Shown here: positions 1,195 to 63,507 of the stretch, piece after piece
Numbering within the stretch: the first letter of the stretch is position 1
Layout of the letters: each line of letters starts with the position of its first letter
NCBI GenBank assembly: GCA_951406725.2
Contig: OX597816.1
Coordinates: 1,302,001 to 1,366,000, forward strand
Length of the DNA stretch: 64,000 nucleotides
Direction: 5' to 3'
From: Octopus vulgaris
Lineage: Eukaryota
Made by a program: the position numbers and the translations under genes
Notes under the pieces: generated by a model
What the model saw: only the letters and a program-made list of their open reading frames with translations
What the model was told of the DNA's origin: nothing
Database searches by the model: none

Positions 1195-1560
1195 CACCTT
1201 TTTTTCAGGCCAATCCACCTGAGACCACCCCTACTGCTATGGTACAAACTTCATGTTTAAAAGTGATTTAAATTAAGAGCCTTCCAACAAAACTTCATAT
1301 TAACATATTTATGCCAACTTAATGACATTTGACGAAGGTCTTCGTTATTTTCAAGATCAATTGAAACGAAAGCAATGTCTTTGAAAAGAAATATGGTAAA
1401 TAAAGTGACCCAAGTGAAAGCCTTCCGTCAAAATTTCATCTTGGTTTCTGTTCCAAACTTAAAAATGACAAAGTTATTTCACTAAATTCCTTATTATTTT
1501 GAAAATCAATTGAAAGAAAGACAGAATATTTCAACAGAAATATGAGAACAAAATGGTTAA
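1195..1560 (+). mobile_element. AT-rich TTAA-ended non-autonomous DNA element (piggyBac-like MITE family)
   Basis: Internal ~140-bp duplication; ends aaatggTTAA; same family at ~10398-10640, 22488-22858, 23320-23580(-), 54880-54990(-). Confidence 0.5.
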
Positions 1561-2526
1561 TGCCAGAGCTCTAAACAGCAGCTAAACTTCCCTTGTATCA
1601 CATCCTATCATCTTTAGAAGACAAAAAGGAAGCATAGTTCTAGATGTAGTCATCATCATCATCATCAACATCATTGTCATTTAACGCCTGTTTTCCAAGC
1701 TGTTATGGGTCGTCAGATGGTTTGACAGGAGCAGGCAAGCCGGTTCAGCTGCACCAGACTCCAATTGTCTGTTTTGGCAGGGTTTCTTTAGCTGGATGCC
1801 CTTCCCAATACCAGCCACTTTACAGAGTGTATCGAGTGGGTTTTATGTGGCACCAGCACAGAGACATTTTACAGGGTATCAGTAAAGGTGCTGGAAAAAA
1901 AGATAGGAGGGTCACAGCTTGAATGCAGTCACTTGACCTGACAGAAATAGCAGCTAAATCTTGCTGCTGACTTCTCCCACTCTCCAAGGTACATCATCCA
2001 ATATTAGTGGACACAACAGGAATTTTGTATTTAAGCTCAATTCTGATCTCTTCTCTTCAGCCATTTCCTTGGATGCTTTTAACTAACAAAAATATGGAAA
2101 TTATTGTAGAATCTATTGATGAACAGTTGCAAATTCAAAAGTTGGAATGGTTAAGCTGAAGTCAAAAGACAACGAGAATATGAGCAAATGCTCAGGTAAT
2201 ATGTTAATTTAATATGTTAATTTAATAACAGCTGATGTAAATGGTTGGGTGATTGCATTCTCCAGTGACAATTTACATTGTATAGATAGAGGGGGAGAAG
2301 GTAAAGGGTTAGGGTAAAGAGAAACTGAACATATGTGCACATATTAGGCTTTGTGGCAAGCAATGAGTAAGTGAATGCCTCCCCTACCTATCCCACCCTC
2401 ACCCACACACACATACAAATTGAAAGAGGAATCATAGGGGAGGAGGTGAAAGTTTAGAGAGGCTGGGTTTCAATGGAGTAGATGTCTGATTGTGTTGTTA
2501 AAATTTTTAAAATACCACATTTATTG

Positions 2527-3507
2527 CAAATAAGTTAGGCTAGATGAGATGCAGTTTGGTTTTCTGCCAGGAAGAAGCATCACTGATGCTATACTTCTGG
2601 TAAGGCAGCTGCAGGAGAAATATCTAGCCAAAGATAAATTTCTGTACTTGGCTTTTGTTGACTTGGAGAAAGCCTTTGACAGGGTCCCCTGATCCCTTAT
2701 CTGGTAGTTAATGCAGAAACTGTGGATAGATGAGTGGTTGGTAACAGCTGTACAAGCCCTGTACATGGATGCTATCAGAAAGGGGAGGGTTGGCAACGAG
2801 TATAGAGAAGAATTCCGGGTAGAAGTAGGGGTTCACCAAGGATCAGTCCTCAGCCCCCTTTTATTCATCATAGTCCTCTAGGCAATAACAGAGGAATTCA
2901 AGACAGGCTGCCCCTGGGAGCTCCTCTATGTGGAAGATGTACAGAAAGCAGATTCCATCATATGCCAGGGGAAAAAACTAAAAGTAGTTGATAGCTTCCA
3001 CTACCTAGGTGACCAAGTCTGTAGTGGGGGTGGATGCTCTGAGAGTGTAGTAGCTAGATTAAGAATAGCCTGGGCAAAGTTCAGAGAGGTCCTACCTCTG
3101 CTGGCAACTAAGGGCTTCTCGCTCAGGATGAAAGGTAAACTGTATGATGCTTGTGTGCGAACAGCCATGCTACACGGCAGTGAACCATGGGCCTTGACGG
3201 CTGAGGAGATGCGTAGACTTGAAAGAAATGAAGCTAGTGTGTTCCGCTGGATGTGTAATGTCAGTGTGCATAAACGACAGAGTGTGAGCACCCTGAGAAA
3301 AAAGTTGCCAGTACCGCCTGACTGGCCATCGTGCTGGTGGCATGTAAAAGCACCCACAACCACTCTCGGAGTGGTTGGTATTAGGAAAGGCATCCAGCTG
3401 TAGAAACTCTGCCAGATCAGATTGGAGCCTGGTGCAGCCATCTGGTTCGCCAGTCCTCAGTCAAATCGTCTAACCCATGCTAGCATGGAAAGCGGATGCT
3501 AAATGAT
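2527..3507 (+). mobile_element. RTE-clade LINE fragment, internally deleted, with 3' end
   Basis: QFGFLPGRS, FVDLEKAFD, GVHQGSVLSPLLF, SFHYLGD, KLYDACVRTAMLHGSE; deletions at ~2930 and ~3306; terminal ccatgctagcatgg hairpin. Confidence 0.92.
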
Positions 3508-3510
3508 ATA

Positions 3511-3602
3511 TCATCATCATCATCATTTAACGTCCGCTTTCCATGCTAGCATGGGTTGGACGATTTGACTGAGGACTGGCGAACCAGATGGCTGCACCAG
3601 GC

Positions 3603-3608
<6 letters not shown>
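3511..3608 (-). mobile_element. RTE 3'-terminal fragment inverted against the preceding copy
   Basis: Reverse complement of 3421-3507; (CAT)n tail; ends in a (TA)n run. Confidence 0.9.
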
Positions 3609-25291: not shown

Positions 25292-26092
25292 TTGGAAAAC
25301 ATAGGTGGGATTGGCTGAAGAAAGGAGCACTGAAAAAAGAGACTGAGAGCACCATACTGGCAGCACAAGACCACGCTTTGGCCACAAATTGGAGGGTCAA
25401 CCTTAGGAACAAGCAAGTGTCTCTACTGTGCTGCATCTGTAACAGAGTGGATGAGACTATTGGCCATATCGTGAATGAATGCGCTAGACTTGCTCTAAAC
25501 CATCATAAGTTGTGGCAACACAATGAGGTAGCAAAAGTGTTACATCAGAGAATATGCAAAAAAGCAGGATCTAGAGAGAAGCAAGACATGGTAAGAGCAC
25601 AAACTGCAGAGTGTGGTGGGGTCAGAGATCTGCAAAACCCTGTGAGGTTTCCCAAACCAAACAGAGCTGGTCCTAGAGTATAACAAAATAGACGTAGTGC
25701 TGGTGGACAAGGTGCACTACATGTGCTATATAGCTGATGTTGCATGCCCCTTTGACCCACGAATAGCCAAGAAGGAAGGTGAAAAGACAGATAGATACAA
25801 TCTTCTTAAGTACAAAATAGCCTGGCTATGGAAAAGGAAGACGGTAAAGATAGTGCCAATTATTGTTGGATCCTTGGAGACAGTATTAGAAGGCATCAAG
25901 GGGAATATAAAAGAAATTGGAATAGAGTGCCTAGTAGAACTATTACAAACGGTTTGCCTCCTTGGCACAGCCAGAATAACCAGAAAAGTATAAAATGGTT
26001 GAAAAGAACAGATGACATGGCATTGTAGGCTGCCGGCAGCAAACCAGGTGTGCATGCAAAACTCCAGGAGTTCCAATAAAACCTGAGTTTTA
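25292..26092 (+). mobile_element. R4/Dong-like RLE non-LTR 3' fragment
   Basis: WLKKGALKKETESTILAAQD, CCICNRVDETIGHIVNEC (CCHC), IADVACPFD, LQTVCLLGTA; same family as 51848-52620(-) and 43175-43315(-). Confidence 0.9.
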
Positions 26093-26326
26093 AAAAAAAT
26101 AAGCAAATAATGGCTTCAAATTTCGGCACAAGGCCAGTAATATTGGCCAGTTGCATCAACCCCAGGATGCAACCAGTACTCATTTTATTGACCCCAGAAG
26201 GATGAAAAGCAAAGTCGACCATGGCAAAATTTGAAATTTACACAAAGACAGACGAAATGCCATAAAGCATGTTAACAATTCTGCCAGTTCATTACACCAC
26301 CACCAACAACAACAACAATAATGATA

Positions 26327-29878: not shown

Positions 29879-30039
29879 TTATGTAAAATAAAGAAAATTT
29901 AAACAGAAGGATTACTCAATACTTTTTAACAGAATACATGTTCATTAAATTTTTACAAGGAAAAGGTTGACAGTGACTTTGAAGTGATGTCTGATAAAGG
30001 TAAATGAACCTTAACTTATATATATATATATATATATAA

Positions 30040-35849: not shown

Positions 35850-37081
35850 CAGGGCTTGGGCAAAATAATGGAAACACCTAGCATCATAATTTTGAAATAT
35901 CTATAAAACCGTCAAAAGCTTGTTTATTTTGATGTTTTTTCATTTATTATTAGTGTTGCTTAATATGTTTTGCTAAAAAAGCGGGGTTTTTTTCAGATAT
36001 CATCAAAAAAAGGTAATTAAAATTCATTAAAATGACAGATCTTTCGGACTTTCAAAGAGGTTGAATTGTTGGTGCTCGTATGGCAGGCGCTAGCATAAGG
36101 AAAACAGCCGAAATGTTTGGTGTATCAAGAAGTACTGTCTTGAACGTAATGACAGCTTTTGAGAAAGAGGGAAAAACCTCCTCATTGAAACAAAACTCTG
36201 GAAGAAAACAAAAACTTTCAGATAGGGACCGTTGGACTCTTATGCGAATTGTTAGAAAGGATCACAAAAGAACAGGTCCCAGAATTACTGCAGAATTTAA
36301 CGACCACCTCGAGAACCAAGTTTCCATAAAAACTGTTCGCTGGAAGCTGCACAAAGCCGGATTTCATGGGAGGGCTGCAATCAGAAAACCACTACTTTCA
36401 AAAACAATCATTGCAATGCGTTTAGAGTGGAGTAAAAACCTACAGAATTGGTCCCTAGAGCATCCTTCACCTTATTTCCGACCACCGGTCAAGTATATGT
36501 GTGGAGACAGCCAAAAGAAGCATTTGACCCAGATTGCATTCTTCCAATTGCTAAACATGGAGGAGGATCTGTGATGATCTGGAGGGCTATATCTTGTAAA
36601 TCCGCCAGCCCAATGGCTTCCCTTCATGGCAGAATTAATAGTCAAGACTATTTAAGCATTTTATCTGATCAATTTCATCCTATAGTTGCGGAACTGCTTC
36701 CGGACAGAAATGCAATCTTTCAGGATGATAATGCACCGATTCACACAGCTAAATTTGTCACTGAATGGCACGAAGAACATTCTAATGAAGATGAACATCT
36801 TATCTGGCCACCACAGTCCCCAGATCTCAATATTATTGAACGTTTATGGTGCATTTTAGAAAAACAAGTAAAGAGTCAATAGCCTCCACCATCATCACTA
36901 CAAGAACTGGAGGCTGTTTTAGCTGAAAAATGGACAAAAATTCCTTTGGAAACAATTCAAACTTTGTACGAGTTCATACCTTGCAGAATTTAGGCTGTAA
37001 TTACTGGCAAAGGCAGTCCTACCCCATGTTAAAATAAATTTGCTTGAAATTTTAAGATGTTTCCATTATTTTGCCCAACCC

Positions 37082-39097: not shown

Positions 39098-39447
39098 ATT
39101 CCATGACCGACAGACTAATTGAAACCCCACCATTCTCCTCTCCATCGCCCTACCTGTAATCATTTCACGGCACTTTCTCTTTTCTTCTGGAAATATGTCT
39201 TAGAAAACCAAGTTGGATCTTTCATAACTAAAATCTAGTTGAACCTAATTTCTCTTGTTACAGCCATCAAGAAGTTTTTAATTATTTTACTTTACTGTAC
39301 TCAATCGCCTCCACCACCACCACCACCACCACCACCATCGTCTCCACCATCACCACCACCATCGTCACCACCACCATCGTCACCACCACCATCGTCATCA
39401 TCATTGTTCACTCTCCACTTTCCCATATTTGCATGGAGTTCATTATG

Positions 39448-39647
39448 TACATTGTTTACATTTAACAGATATTTATCCTCATCTTGTTTGTTGTTAACAT
39501 GTTTCGTCTGATATACTCTCCAGCCTTCATCAGGTGTCTTTTTTCCCCAAGATCAGCCAAAACGTGTTAACAACTAACAAGATGAGGACAAATATCCGTC
39601 ATTTGTAAATAATGTAAATAATTCCTCATCTCTTAAAAATAGAACTG
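39448..39647. mobile_element. Fold-back hammerhead element nested in a SINE tail
   Basis: Minus arm gacac-CTGATGA-aggctg..cagac-GAAA-catgtt; plus arm with core deleted; ~30-bp tail; same family as 63296-63507. Confidence 0.75.
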
Positions 39648-39944
39648 TTCCATGGAGTTTACTGAGACAAATTTTCCATGGCTGAATGTCCTTCTTGTTG
39701 CCAATCCTCACTTGTTTCCGAGCAAGGTAATATTTTCCCATGGCCAGATATGTTCTTGTAGAGCTTGAGTGACCAGAGACAGTCATTTACAAGTTGCATT
39801 CTGATGCCAAGACAAGCAGACACAGACATACATTGACTCACACACACACACACATACATATATACATAGACGGACGGACATACACACACACACACATATA
39901 CATACATGAACGGACATACAGAGGCGCGTACACACACACATACA

Positions 39945-51824: not shown

Positions 51825-54080
51825 TTATTATTATTATTATTATTATTTCTTTTTATCACAGGTTTTGTTAGAACTCCTGGAGTCTTGCATGCATAGCAGG
51901 CTTGCTACCTGCAGCCTACGATACCATGCTATTCATTCTTTTCAGCTAATACTTTCCTCAGTATTCTAGCCATGCCAAGGAGACAAACCTTTTGTAACAG
52001 TTCCACAGGGCACTCTATTCCAATTTCCTTTATATTCTTCTTGGTGCCTTCTGATTCTATTCCCAAGGACTCAACAATAATTGGCACTATCTTTACCTTC
52101 TTCATTTTCCATTGCTGGGCTATTTTGTACTTAAGAGGGTTGTATCTATCTGTCTTTTCACCTTCCTTCTTGACTATTCATGGGTCAAAGGGGCAACTAA
52201 CATCAACTACATAGCATATGTGGTGCACTTTGTCAATCACCACTAGGTCTGGTCTGTTATGTTCTAGCACCTGATCCCAGAGGATTTTGCTAGACTCCAA
52301 TTCTGCCATTCTCTGCAATTTGTTCACATACCTTGTCTTGCCTCTCTCTAGTCCCCACTTTTCTAACAATTTCCAATGTAGCACTTTTGCTACCTGATTA
52401 TGTCACCACAACTTGTAGTGGTTTGGGGTACGTCTAGGGCATTCATTTGTGATATGGGCAATGGTTTCATCCACTCTATTGCAGATGCAGCACAACAAAG
52501 ACTTGCTCATTCCTCAGGTTGACCCTCCCGTTCGTGACCAGAGCTTGGTCCTGCACTGCCAGAATACTGCTCTCGGTCTCTTTTTTTAGGGTTCCTTTCA
52601 TCAGCCAATCTCAGCTATTTTTTCCAGCAACTTCTTTTGTTGCTACATGGAATTGATTATGTGGTCCCTTCTTGCGTACTTCTTCTTCACGTCCTTTTTG
52701 TACTTCTTTCTTTGTTTTCCCTTTTTTCTTTTCTGCTCTCAATACTTCCTCGTTCCTCTCACTAGAAAGGTTTCTTTACTTTGGGCCAGCTATCTCATTA
52801 AGCTCTCAAGTTCGATATGCACGCAGTCTTCCACACTTATCAGTCCCCTTCCTCCAATCGTTCTCTTCCTATATGGGTGATCAATGTCTGAACGTAGATT
52901 ATCGGCTCCATGCATCGATAGGAGCTTTCTTGACTTCCTGTCCATCTCCTTTAGCTCCTTCTCTGTCCAATTCAGGATGCCAGCACCATAACAAATTGCT
53001 GTGACTGTGCATGAGTTTATTGCCGAAATTATGTTTCTGGCTTTCAGCTTTGAAGTCAACATTTTTCTCACTCACCACAGGTACTCGCTTTTTGTCTTTT
53101 CCTTCATGTTGTAGTGTTTGATTCCATCTGCCTCGAGTATTCCCAGGTATTTATTAGCTGGATTGAGGTTGAATTTCTTTCATCATTTTACCACTTTACA
53201 GCCACATGCCTTCTGTCCTGGCAAACTTTCCTCATCTCATCACCATCGTAGCACATTTTGAGAGCCCAAACTCCATCTTGATATCATTGGAGAAAATCCA
53301 CACAGACTGGACTAGGCTGTCCAGTTCTGCCTCATTTTTTGTGAATAGCTTCAGGTCGTCCATGAATAGCAAGTGGTTTAGTTTTCCCTCCCAGGTCATA
53401 CCCCAACTTTGTTTCCTGTAGTATTTCACTCAAGGGGATCATTTCCTGCACGAAGATCAGTGGGAACAGATTATCCCAGTGGAAGATTCCCCTTTTGATT
53501 TTCATCTCACCTCCTAATACTTGATTCCCTGCTGTCAATTCCATTCTCCACCATTTCATACTGTTCCATTTAAGGCTTCTCATATTCTCTGCTACTCCAG
53601 ACATTTCTATTGTTCTTATTATCCAGGAGTGTGCTATCATATCATATGCTTTGCAATAATCAACCCATGCCACAACCCATGCCATGCTCAGATTTATGTG
53701 TCTTCTCTTCCAATTCCTGATAATTTGAATTATCAATCAAGAGCTGATCTTTCGTTCCTCGGCTCCTTTTTTTTTTTTTGGCACCCTTTCTGTTCAATGG
53801 GTAGCAGCCCCTTTTTTTTCCAAGTATCTGTACAGTTCACTGGCCAAAGCATCTGACATTAGTTTCCATATTAGCAGAAGGCTTGTTATTGGTCTAAAGT
53901 TGGATGCAGCATTTCCCTTTCCAGGATCCTTAGCACATAACAATGTCTTTCCCTTTCTCATCCAGCCTTCCTACCATGCCTTCCTGCAAGCACTCATTTT
54001 GCTGTTGTGGTTCTTTACATTCTCTTTGTTCTTTTCTTTTGTATCCAACTCTATCTGCAGCAACCATAGCTGCAGCCCAA
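51490..54080 (-). mobile_element. R4/Dong-like non-LTR element (51848-54080) plus a second fragment (51490-51750)
   Basis: WVDYCKAYDMIAHSWI, RGIFHWDNLFPLIF, NHLLFMDDLKLF, MEFGLSKCA, GGRGL, CCHC, RPDLVVIDK; 3' end at (ATT)n 51772-51846. Confidence 0.92.
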
Positions 54081-61260: not shown

Positions 61261-61717
61261 TGGTGGTTGGTGGGAGTCTACTTATGCAGAGTCTGACCAC
61301 CTCTTGTACCTACACCTTGGATCCATCATGGCATCTGATGTGGCTTTTTAAACCAGACAGTGTATTGAAAAGACACTCACATGGAATGTATAACCGATTT
61401 GGACCAGCAAGAGCTGCAATTAAGTTCTGATCTTTGTGGATCTTAAAATGTCTTTTGAGGCCTCTGTTAGATCTGCAGACCTTATGGCATACACGACATT
61501 GAAAGGTATGCGCAGACATATAGGCAGAATAGTTGGTGGAGGCTCGTTTTCCATGGGTTCGCAAATGAGATTTGAGCCCAGCAAAAGAAAGGCATGGTCT
61601 GTCACAAACTGTGCACTCAAAAAGGTCATTGTGATTCACCTTCTCGATCGGAACATTCTTCCTTAAATCTCTTTTGAGTCTTGCATGCGTTATCCTCGCC
61701 TCTTCAAATGCTTTCAT
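61261..61717 (-). mobile_element. 3' end of a BovB/RTE-like LINE with tandem C2H2 fingers
   Basis: AFEEARITHARLKRDLRK then CTVCDRPCLSFAGLKSHLRTH, CRVCHKVCRSNRGLKRHFKIH and a decayed third finger; short 3' UTR ending ccaaccacca; (TA)n at both ends. Confidence 0.65.
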
Positions 61718-61729
61718 ATATATATATAT

Positions 61730-63280
61730 ATCATCATCATCATCATCATCATCATCATCGTTTAATGTCCGTTTTCCGCGCTAGCATGGGTTGGACGGTT
61801 CGACCGGAGTCTGTGAAGCCAGGGCTGCACCAGGCTCCAGTCTGATCTGGCAGTGTTTCTACAGCTGGATGCCCTTCTTAACGGCAACCACTCCGCGAGT
61901 GTAGTGGGTACTTTTTACGTGCCACCTGCACAGGTGCCAAGGTGGGGTCTGGCATCGGCCATGATCGGATGGTGCTTTTAACGTGCCACCGGCACGGAAG
62001 CCAGCCATGTTCGGATGGTGCTTTTTATGTGCCACCGGCACAGAAGCCAGTCGAGGCGGCGCTAGCAACGGTCACGTTCGGATGGTGCTTTTTATGTGCC
62101 ACTGACACAGGTATCACAACTACTAATTCCATTGATATTTGTTTCGATGTTCATGTACATGCACTTGACTCAACAGGTCTCCTCAAGCACAGCGAGACGT
62201 TCCGGGATCCAAGGTACTTTGAATGGGCAGGGGCTATGCGGAACTGGAGCCGGAAGCATCCCGGGTCTTTGTAGTCACAGCACATCTCCAGAGATCTTGG
62301 TTCTTCGCCATTGCCTCAGTGAGGCCCAACGCTCTGAGGTCATGCTTGACTACCTCATCCCATGTCTTCCTGGGTCTACTTCTCCCCCGATTCCTTCAAC
62401 TGTTTGGGAGTGGCACTTCTTCACACATCTCTCCTCATCCATCCGCAGTACATGACCATACCATCGCAAGCGTTGCTCTTGCACACCGCATCTGATGCTT
62501 CTTATGTCTAGCATTTCTCTCAGAGTGCTTACACTCTGTCGTGAGTGCACACTGACATTACACATCCAGCGGATCATGCTAGCTTCATTTCTTTCAAGTC
62601 TACGCATGTTCTCTGCAGTCATGGCCCATGTTTCACTGCCGTGAAGCATGGCAGTTCGCACACATGCATCATACAATCTACCTTTCACTCTGAGTGAGAG
62701 ACCCTTTGTTGCCAGTAGGGGTAGGAGCTTTCTAAACTTTGCCCAGGCTATTCGTATTCTAGTGATGACACTCTCTGAGCATCCACCTCCACTACTAACT
62801 TGGTCACCCAGGTAGTGGAAACTATCAACTACTTCTAGTTTCTTCCCCTGGAGTGTGATGGAATCTGTTTTCTGAGTATTTGTGGTGTCTATTGTCCCTG
62901 TGCATCTGCCGCAGATGAAAGCTATCTTATCAGTTAATTTCCCTTTGACGTTGCTGCACCTCTTATGCGTCCATAGCTTACACTGGGTGCATCTTATGGA
63001 GTTTCTACCTACACCTTTCCTACCGATTGAGCAGGGCCACCTGCCCAATGGGGTGTGTGCTGAGTTTGCCTTTCTGCTTACTATAACTTTGGTCTTCGCT
63101 ACATTTATTCTAAGGCCCTTTGATTCTAACCCTTGTTTCCACACCTGAAATTTCTTTTCTAGTTCCAGTAGTGATTCTGCTATGAGAGCCAGGTCATCAG
63201 CATAGAGGAGCTCCCAGGGGCAACCTGTTTTGAATTCCTCTGTTATTGCCTGGAGGACTCTGTTATTGCCTGAATTCCTC
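61730..63280 (-). mobile_element. Longest RTE-clade LINE copy (5'-truncated)
   Basis: 310-aa ORF 62350-63282 with ELLYADDLALIAE, PHD-like insert, SFHYLGD, RLRWYGHV; 4-unit 3' array; (CAT)n; TA runs both ends. Confidence 0.96.
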
Positions 63281-63295
63281 ATATATATATATATA

Positions 63296-63507
63296 TAAAT
63301 ATATACCCTCCAGCCTTCATCAGGTGTCTTGGGGGAAATTTCAAACCTGGGTTCTCATATCTAAGGTATTTTTCTATGTTGTTGTTATTGTTATTGTTAT
63401 TATTATTATTATTATTCAGGTCACTGCCTGGAATCGAACTCGGAATCTTGGAGTTAGTAGCCTGCACTCTGAACCACTATGCCATATGCCCGTGGGCATA
63501 TGGCATA
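63296..63507 (-). mobile_element. tRNA-headed element carrying the 5' half of a hammerhead
   Basis: A box tggcatagtgg, B box gagttcgattcc, (AAT/AAC)n linker, then ccccaagacac-CTGATGA-aggctggagggtatat; 5' palindrome 63478-63507. Confidence 0.75.

Follow-up and report, generated by a model that had tools for sequence, protein, structure and literature searches.

The sequence at 63296-63507 of the window, that is, of the whole 64-kb stretch of Octopus vulgaris DNA that was analysed, represents the terminal module of an autonomous Penelope/Poseidon-type retrotransposon, in the form of a short and decayed copy. The module is a unit of about 300 nt, made of a tRNA-like head, an (AAT)n repeat, a minimal hammerhead and a tail of about 80 nt, and it is present in thousands of genomic copies. 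It constitutes the pseudo-LTR (pLTR) of a coding element of about 2.8 kb in the same genome, a structural assignment of which we are nearly certain; the element carries a built-in SINE. We propose that the short copies arise by Pol III initiation at the head together with initiation of the element's own reverse transcriptase (RT) within the tail, and give this full mechanism a probability of roughly 0.6.

Two decayed copies of the module in the window

The copy at 63296-63507 lies on the minus strand and begins with the palindrome with 14-bp arms that had been predicted, located at 63478-63507. This comprises a 14-bp remnant of an inverted second arm (63494-63507, plus strand, starting at tRNA +1 of the other strand) and a 2-nt centre (63492-63493). 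The tRNA-derived head follows (63417-63491, with +1 at 63491; Arg-like among the tRNAs compared, and 92% to the head of locus L023); in it, sequences matching the Pol III A box (63474-63484) and B box (63430-63441) were found on the minus strand exactly where the original prediction had placed them. Next come an (AAT/AAC)n spacer whose length varies between copies (63379-63416), a 47-nt linker (63332-63378) with the ATG (63358-63356) at which the ORF of the autonomous element likely starts, and the 5' half of a minimal type I hammerhead (63301-63330), that is, the 5' strand of helix I, CUGAUGA, a bulged A and the 5' strand of helix II. The succession of (AAT/AAC)n and GACAC-CTGATGA-A-GGCTG..., broken off at a TA run, thus reads as it had been described. 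The 64 kb contain one or two occurrences of each box and of the CTGATGAAGG core.

The 3' half of the hammerhead and the tail are missing from this copy, and this 3' half was not found elsewhere in the 64-kb window. Where the break occurs, at the TA run, a 5'-truncated RTE-like LINE interrupts the copy (61730-63280, minus strand, ends approximate); it is foreign to the element and flanked on both sides by TA runs. Directly beyond the RTE insertion, an open frame with several C2H2-like motifs (61330-61715, minus strand) probably represents either a zinc-finger exon or the terminal part of another LINE. Other repeats in the window are an inverted pair of an abundant RTE-tail repeat, which forms a long hairpin with a weak match to Rfam MIR4374 (3305-3608), what we take to be a Tc1/mariner-like transposase fragment (36065-36574, plus strand), and presumably two copies of another LINE-like fragment (25293-26111 and 51833-52626).

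The second copy, at 39441-39647, is a two-armed insertion in which a central deletion removed both heads. One arm (39441-39540, minus strand) contains the hammerhead, with a 3-nt deletion at the cleavage site, and ends at the short 3' end; the inverted arm (39552-39647, plus strand) contains a remnant of the 3' part of the hammerhead and the long 3' end, corresponding to the full tail. A 12-bp target-site duplication (TSD) borders the insertion, its left copy (39429-39440, plus strand) having one mismatch with the right one (39648-39659, plus strand). For 39448-39647, the original prediction had announced an inverted-arm and tail layout together with GAAA and a GTGTT strand able to pair with GACAC. 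The layout is there, with no tRNA head, and the ribozyme is damaged in both arms: 3 nt are absent at the predicted cleavage site in each (39498-39503 and 39563-39568; this deletion recurs family-wide), GAAA has become AAAA in one arm, and the other has ATGTT instead of GTGTT plus a mismatch in helix II. Both window copies are decayed, neither ribozyme is intact, and neither has the full set of minimal type I features that the family sequence possesses.

An abundant family with a tRNA-derived head

The genome searched comprised 2.8 Gb in 227 contigs. A 25-mer from the head had 2052 exact matches genome-wide (0 for the reversed control), and a pattern covering the 3' part of the hammerhead and the start of the tail had 8125 (control 0), compared to 814 for an ORF-end pattern and 140 for an RT pattern, stringency differing between patterns. 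As the hammerhead-tail pattern fitted only 8 of 30 independently chosen loci, the true total is probably near 30,000 arms, a rough estimate. The hammerhead was on the same arm as the head in 24 of 30 loci selected on the head, and a head match was present in 22 of 30 loci selected on the hammerhead, the remainder being mostly central deletions or truncations. Head and hammerhead are thus one linked repeat unit rather than a chance nesting.

Alignment of the family to genomic tRNAs confirmed that the head is tRNA-derived. The family-majority head has 52 identities to tRNA-Arg(TCT), the best among 30 genomic tRNAs; these cover only six amino acids, and the Arg isotype is therefore provisional. 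The A and B boxes are consensus-like and well kept across the family. Within the window and at eight family loci, ARAGORN and Rfam reported no tRNA and no hammerhead. As in tRNA-derived SINEs, a head with A and B boxes stands at the 5' end. The other SINE hallmarks, namely a LINE-derived 3' tail, a single orientation and a simple-repeat end, were absent: the 3' part corresponds to the stretch of a PLE that encodes the N-terminus, and the copies end at two fixed non-repeat sites.

Family divergence is about 4 to 5% (non-CpG), and the longest open frames in 30 RT loci are 101 to 319 aa. The family is decayed, so that current activity is not visible from the sequence. Contigs from four sequencing runs with four organism labels cover the element, with loose ends at both 3' end positions. 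Some loci lying close together (L237, L240, L242 and L239, L241 at G000:C1 7.9-9.1 Mb, also L041 and L042) are near-identical copies of the same insertion, which suggests segmental or tandem duplication.

The module is the terminus of an autonomous element

A search with a degenerate Penelope/Poseidon RT motif gave the 140 matches mentioned above, versus 1 for the control, and nearly all belonged to one family. Parts of the module accompanied 25 of 30 RT-motif loci, and in 18 of the 30 the head lay downstream on the RT strand, mostly about 1 kb away. The order is complete in L124, where head, AAT repeat, linker, hammerhead, tail, ORF and again head succeed each other with a period of about 2.77 kb, the 5' boundary being two bases before tRNA +1. 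The module flanks the ORF on both sides in L124 and L123, and the ORF stop is about 30 nt upstream of the next head, into which the sequence continued at 29 of 30 loci that had been picked by the ORF end. Partial tandems were found as well (L280, L282).

Hammerhead and tail correspond to the first 55 or so codons of the ORF: the frame running from the linker ATG through both aligns with the N-terminus of a homolog (the 847-aa protein P0004, residues 18-175 against L123). The ORF has 238 homologs, with 52% to the 847-aa protein over residues 18-846. Natural frames contain GLAMGSPLSP, YVDD, DKG and C-terminal C/H/H motifs, and RVT_1 matched; the Pfam GIY-YIG model gave no score on P0004. The element thus has a single ORF with a PLE-type RT followed by a C-terminal endonuclease, and a pLTR with a minimal hammerhead. 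Translations show no zinc-finger linker before the endonuclease, unlike in Neptune/Naiad as described in the accessible text of PMC8557442.

The original prediction had invoked a separate non-autonomous element that borrowed the end of a PLE. This is not the case, the autonomous element itself carrying the head both 5' and 3' of the ORF. The 3' part does match an autonomous PLE pLTR, as hammerhead and tail lie in the start of the PLE ORF. Since the autonomous element carries the head, the short repeat is in part what had been named as its undoing, a PLE terminus, though an unusual one.

Three odd RT-motif matches (L263, L264, L267) had no PLE match. A search for GIY-YIG families mostly yielded a young Naiad family. 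A Naiad PLE was rejected as partner of the module, since none of 20 GIY-YIG loci had a module match and the 456-bp direct repeat lacks a hammerhead. In this Naiad-like family (L081:430-5672 in G000:C16, and many other loci), a 781-aa open frame is shared by many copies at about 98% identity. A further frame, reaching 479 aa, lies upstream, direct repeats of 456 bp are present, tandem repeats follow the ORF, and there is no hammerhead; an octopus Naiad family inserting at (TA)n is listed in the supplement of PMC8557442, as far as that source was accessible. Locus L064 has a different PLE (GIY-YIG at 1500-1770, plus strand), with a long hammerhead-like motif upstream on the opposite strand (L064:700, minus strand).

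Depletion of TTTT along the sense strand

The sense strand of a 2536-nt column-majority yardstick contains no TTTT, compared to 4.7 expected (P = 0.012), and three natural near-full copies contain 1, 0 and 1. Natural ORF pieces, which overlap, hold 7, compared to 21.1 expected under synonymous shuffling. No depletion was seen in the controls, that is, the Naiad ORF (9 compared to 7.2 expected) and 52 metagenomic relatives (412 compared to 385). One unrelated lineage (L328) among 43 testable relatives is also TTTT-free, with T-rich UTRs and no visible tRNA head. The depletion is modest, about 3.7 TTTT being expected per ORF. Near-absence of TTTT on the sense strand suggests that Pol III may transcribe the whole element. 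This polymerase typically initiates some 13 nt ahead of the A box. On these sequence grounds, use of Pol III by the element appears likely; the need to translate an uncapped Pol III RNA counts against it.

A comparable arrangement was encountered in L293 (JGI1357J11328_10009043), a metagenomic Poseidon-like relative, 39% identical in the RT region, with a 2791-nt tandem. An A/B-box stretch (L293:2829-2894 and 38-103) lies 88 nt after the aligned ORF end and is followed by AAT repeats and an in-frame hammerhead. TTTT occurs only twice in each unit, in both cases no more than about 200 nt past the hammerhead. ARAGORN called no tRNA in this stretch, and the same pattern also matched two unrelated places among 79 loci. 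A quick tree did not join the octopus element and L293 as sisters. L293 is a possible second tRNA-headed PLE.

Copy ends and inverted pairs

Run-through upstream into the ORF was found in none of 30 arms selected on the hammerhead (three pairs of which share a locus) and in 5 of 30 selected on the head, and for arms that extend past the head, the end points are spread between -56 and -1548. The 5' boundary is sharp, at about position -2 of the tRNA. Among 21 copies with the N-terminus of the ORF, 14 fall short of the head; the 5' end is at -2/+1 in 3 and within the head in 2, and the other 2 are partial tandems. A start at -2 to +1 also recurs in unpaired copies, long ones among them (L124, L287, L157, L162, L164). 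Paired copies are centred on a native mini-palindrome (-7 to +5), the same centre as at 63492-63493 in the window, which a 32-nt pattern detected at 195 genomic loci. As the centre of the pairs is this native sequence, a stop or fold-back of the RT there could also sharpen the 5' boundary, and the partial tandems indicate that transcripts also cross the head from upstream.

Two opposed arms were present in 82 of the 167 loci examined. Their 3' ends were long and short in 72, both short in 2, both long in 1 and unclassified in 7, so that the PLE arrangement of a 30-40-nt tail at one end plus an inverted copy holds for 72 of the 75 classifiable loci; PLEs with a tail at a single end have been described (PMC8557442, accessible part). 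A TSD was found at 51 of the 82 loci, at 29 of them 12 to 13 bp long; the search tolerates one mismatch, and over-extension is possible. One long and one short end, inverted arms and TSDs of about 12 bp support the predicted mobilization by Penelope machinery.

The arm on the native strand of the centre was the long one in 13 loci and the short one in 11, which argues against simple snap-back of one cDNA. Insertions with one end of each length, irrespective of the strand of the centre, suggest instead that two cDNAs were primed on opposite strands. At hammerhead position 7, arms agree in 41 of 48 pairs, compared to 27.8 expected if they were independent, and disagree in 7; arm-to-arm distance (0.079) is only slightly below between-locus distance (0.087). 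Both the lack of a relation between centre strand and long arm and the shared position-7 variant would fit two cDNAs made from two start sites, usually on the same source.

Copies are probably not made through hammerhead cleavage

The family hammerhead has 5-bp helices I and II, AACGUU and a GUU triplet. It shows all features of the minimal type I, namely CUGANGA, an unpaired base before G10.1-C11.1, GAAA, a palindromic 15.2-16.2 and a short helix I, which are those of minimal PLE hammerheads in the accessible text of PMC4209133. The core is kept in 34 of 71 arms, and two non-CpG family variants were noted, at position 7 and in loop II. The 3-nt deletion at the predicted cleavage site was seen in 7 of 100 and 8 of 71 copies in two samples, on different variant backgrounds and often in one arm of a pair only. 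It could be due to an RT jump across cleaved RNA via a 2-nt overlap, to slippage, or to an in-frame source variant.

Ribozyme processing, proposed in the original prediction as the route of mobilization, found no support, because head and tail are still joined across the cleavage site in the copies. Templates were thus uncut or rejoined, and cleavage is probably not the route by which copies are made. At 17 loci (0 for the control centre), a palindrome has its centre immediately 3' of the cleavage site, which might have been a trace of cleaved RNA. This reading was dropped, since the control covered one of two native linker palindromes and a copy centred on the other exists (L227).

Proposed mechanism and alternatives

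In the mechanism that we favour, Pol III would start at the head and possibly transcribe the whole element of about 3 kb. Initiation of the RT in the first tail would give copies of about 300 nt, and initiation in the downstream tail ORF-containing copies, mostly 5'-truncated. The template would be uncleaved RNA. After a staggered GIY-YIG cut, each strand would prime one cDNA, one per start site and usually on the same source sequence; the two cDNAs would be joined 3'-to-3' by way of the mini-palindrome native to the 5' end of the RNA; the hairpin so formed would later lose its centre. In the accessible text of PMC11167929 on anole Poseidon, the hammerhead overlaps the ORF start, and RT initiates at a pair of neighbouring sites 111 to 118 nt inside the ORF; cutting and extension affect both strands of the target, and the main substrate is uncleaved RNA.

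The short repeats might instead be ordinary 5'-truncated Penelope ends, with the tRNA piece a captured passenger of the pLTR, transcription by Pol II read-through, and cDNAs that stop or pair at the mini-palindrome before the head. In favour of this, the long element natively contains the sequence at the centre of the palindrome, tandem read-through exists, and Penelope pLTRs are reported to hold a promoter (PMC2377424, accessible part). We consider this unlikely, however, as unpaired copies, long ones included, share the 5' boundary, the stem of the mini-palindrome is only 5 bp, the A and B boxes match the consensus and are well kept, and TTTT is depleted along the ORF.

It is quite unlikely that the solo short copies are themselves masters, forming a self-propagating SINE lineage transcribed by Pol III and mobilized in trans by the PLE: the module is identical to the terminus of the long element, even if solo copies keep the A and B boxes and the RT start region, have no TTTT and greatly outnumber ORF copies. 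A variant in 15 of 39 arms of short copies, compared to 0 of 32 in RT loci, initially seemed limited to the former. It was then found in 4 of 19 called ORF-attached copies, three of them apparent duplicates. In these small samples, the case for a SINE-only subfamily thereby lost its support, and comparison with ORF-attached copies revealed no variant restricted to short ones. Retrozyme-like propagation, with hammerhead cleavage freeing monomers or circles for reverse transcription, would agree with the minimal-type features and the recurrent 3-nt deletion at the predicted cleavage site. Yet copies begin at the 5' end of the tRNA and not at the cleavage site, they are arranged head-to-head rather than in the head-to-tail arrays of retrozymes, and ribozyme mutants of anole Poseidon still insert (PMC11167929, accessible part), all of which makes it very improbable.

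Initiation by Pol III at the head and by the element's own RT in the tail remains the preferred reading. Its widest form we advance only tentatively: an autonomous coding element would run on a captured tRNA promoter over its whole length of about 3 kb, purged of TTTT and translated cap-free, and would leave tens of thousands of SINE-like palindromic offspring via internal RT starts, with the same design again in a second Poseidon lineage (L293). In the accessible text of PMC5786205, SINEs are presented as Pol III RNAs that borrow the tails of LINEs, and the autonomous partners of SINEs as units transcribed by Pol II. The route to a SINE-like family differs here, in that the tRNA head is inside the autonomous element and internal priming of the Penelope type would make the element's own 5' end the short repeat. 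The thousands of short two-armed copies also preserve a clean record of the formation of inverted PLE ends, and such copies are easily mis-annotated as tRNA-SINEs or MITEs.

Comparison with known systems

Octopus SINE families of the OR type have an Arg tRNA origin, and Ohshima and Okada (1994) reportedly described the octopus tRNA SINEs OK, OR1 and OR2. OR2 is a CORE SINE (PMC4758252, accessible part); the octopus module differs from OR2 in having no CORE-sized body between head and hammerhead. The accessible parts of two octopus repeat papers (PMC13282606, PMC8967140) mention no hammerhead or such structure. Literature searches turned up neither a PLE with a tRNA head nor a SINE attributed to a PLE; in Repbase or Dfam, the sequence of the element may already be catalogued under some name.

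Other non-autonomous sequences derived from PLEs are known (accessible text of PMC7761336 and PMC7229834). Non-LTR retrozymes and the non-autonomous Chlamys elements (MRC1) are likewise short, non-coding and related to a PLE terminus, and are thought to use PLE enzymes; they differ in forming head-to-tail tandems, with no tRNA head reported in the parts accessible (bioRxiv 10.64898/2026.07.22.740005; PMC8557442). In the main text of the former, the terms tRNA, Pol III and octopus do not occur. Schistosome Sm-alpha and Sj-alpha also combine a tRNA-derived Pol III promoter and a hammerhead in one short repeat. According to the accessible text, these have canonical hammerheads and form tandem repeats that cleavage sets free, and no autonomous partner is identified (PMC2770079, PMC6765202), whereas the octopus copies are dispersed, paired head-to-head and identical to the terminus of a coding PLE.

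The closest resemblance in structure is to Penelope/Poseidon PLEs, such as anole Poseidon PAc and Penelope of D. virilis, which share a single ORF with RT plus a GIY-YIG-type domain at the C-terminus, a partial-tandem pLTR, a minimal hammerhead over the ORF start, two 3' ends about 35 to 45 nt apart and an inverted 5' copy (PMC11167929 and PMC8557442, accessible parts). Unlike theirs, the octopus pLTR has at its start a tRNA-derived head bearing A and B boxes, most copies consist of the terminal module alone with a fixed 5' end, and the sense strand is nearly free of TTTT. Both the combination of a tRNA-SINE with a hammerhead and short elements derived from PLEs were already known; relative to the literature found, the new part is a PLE pLTR headed by a tRNA.
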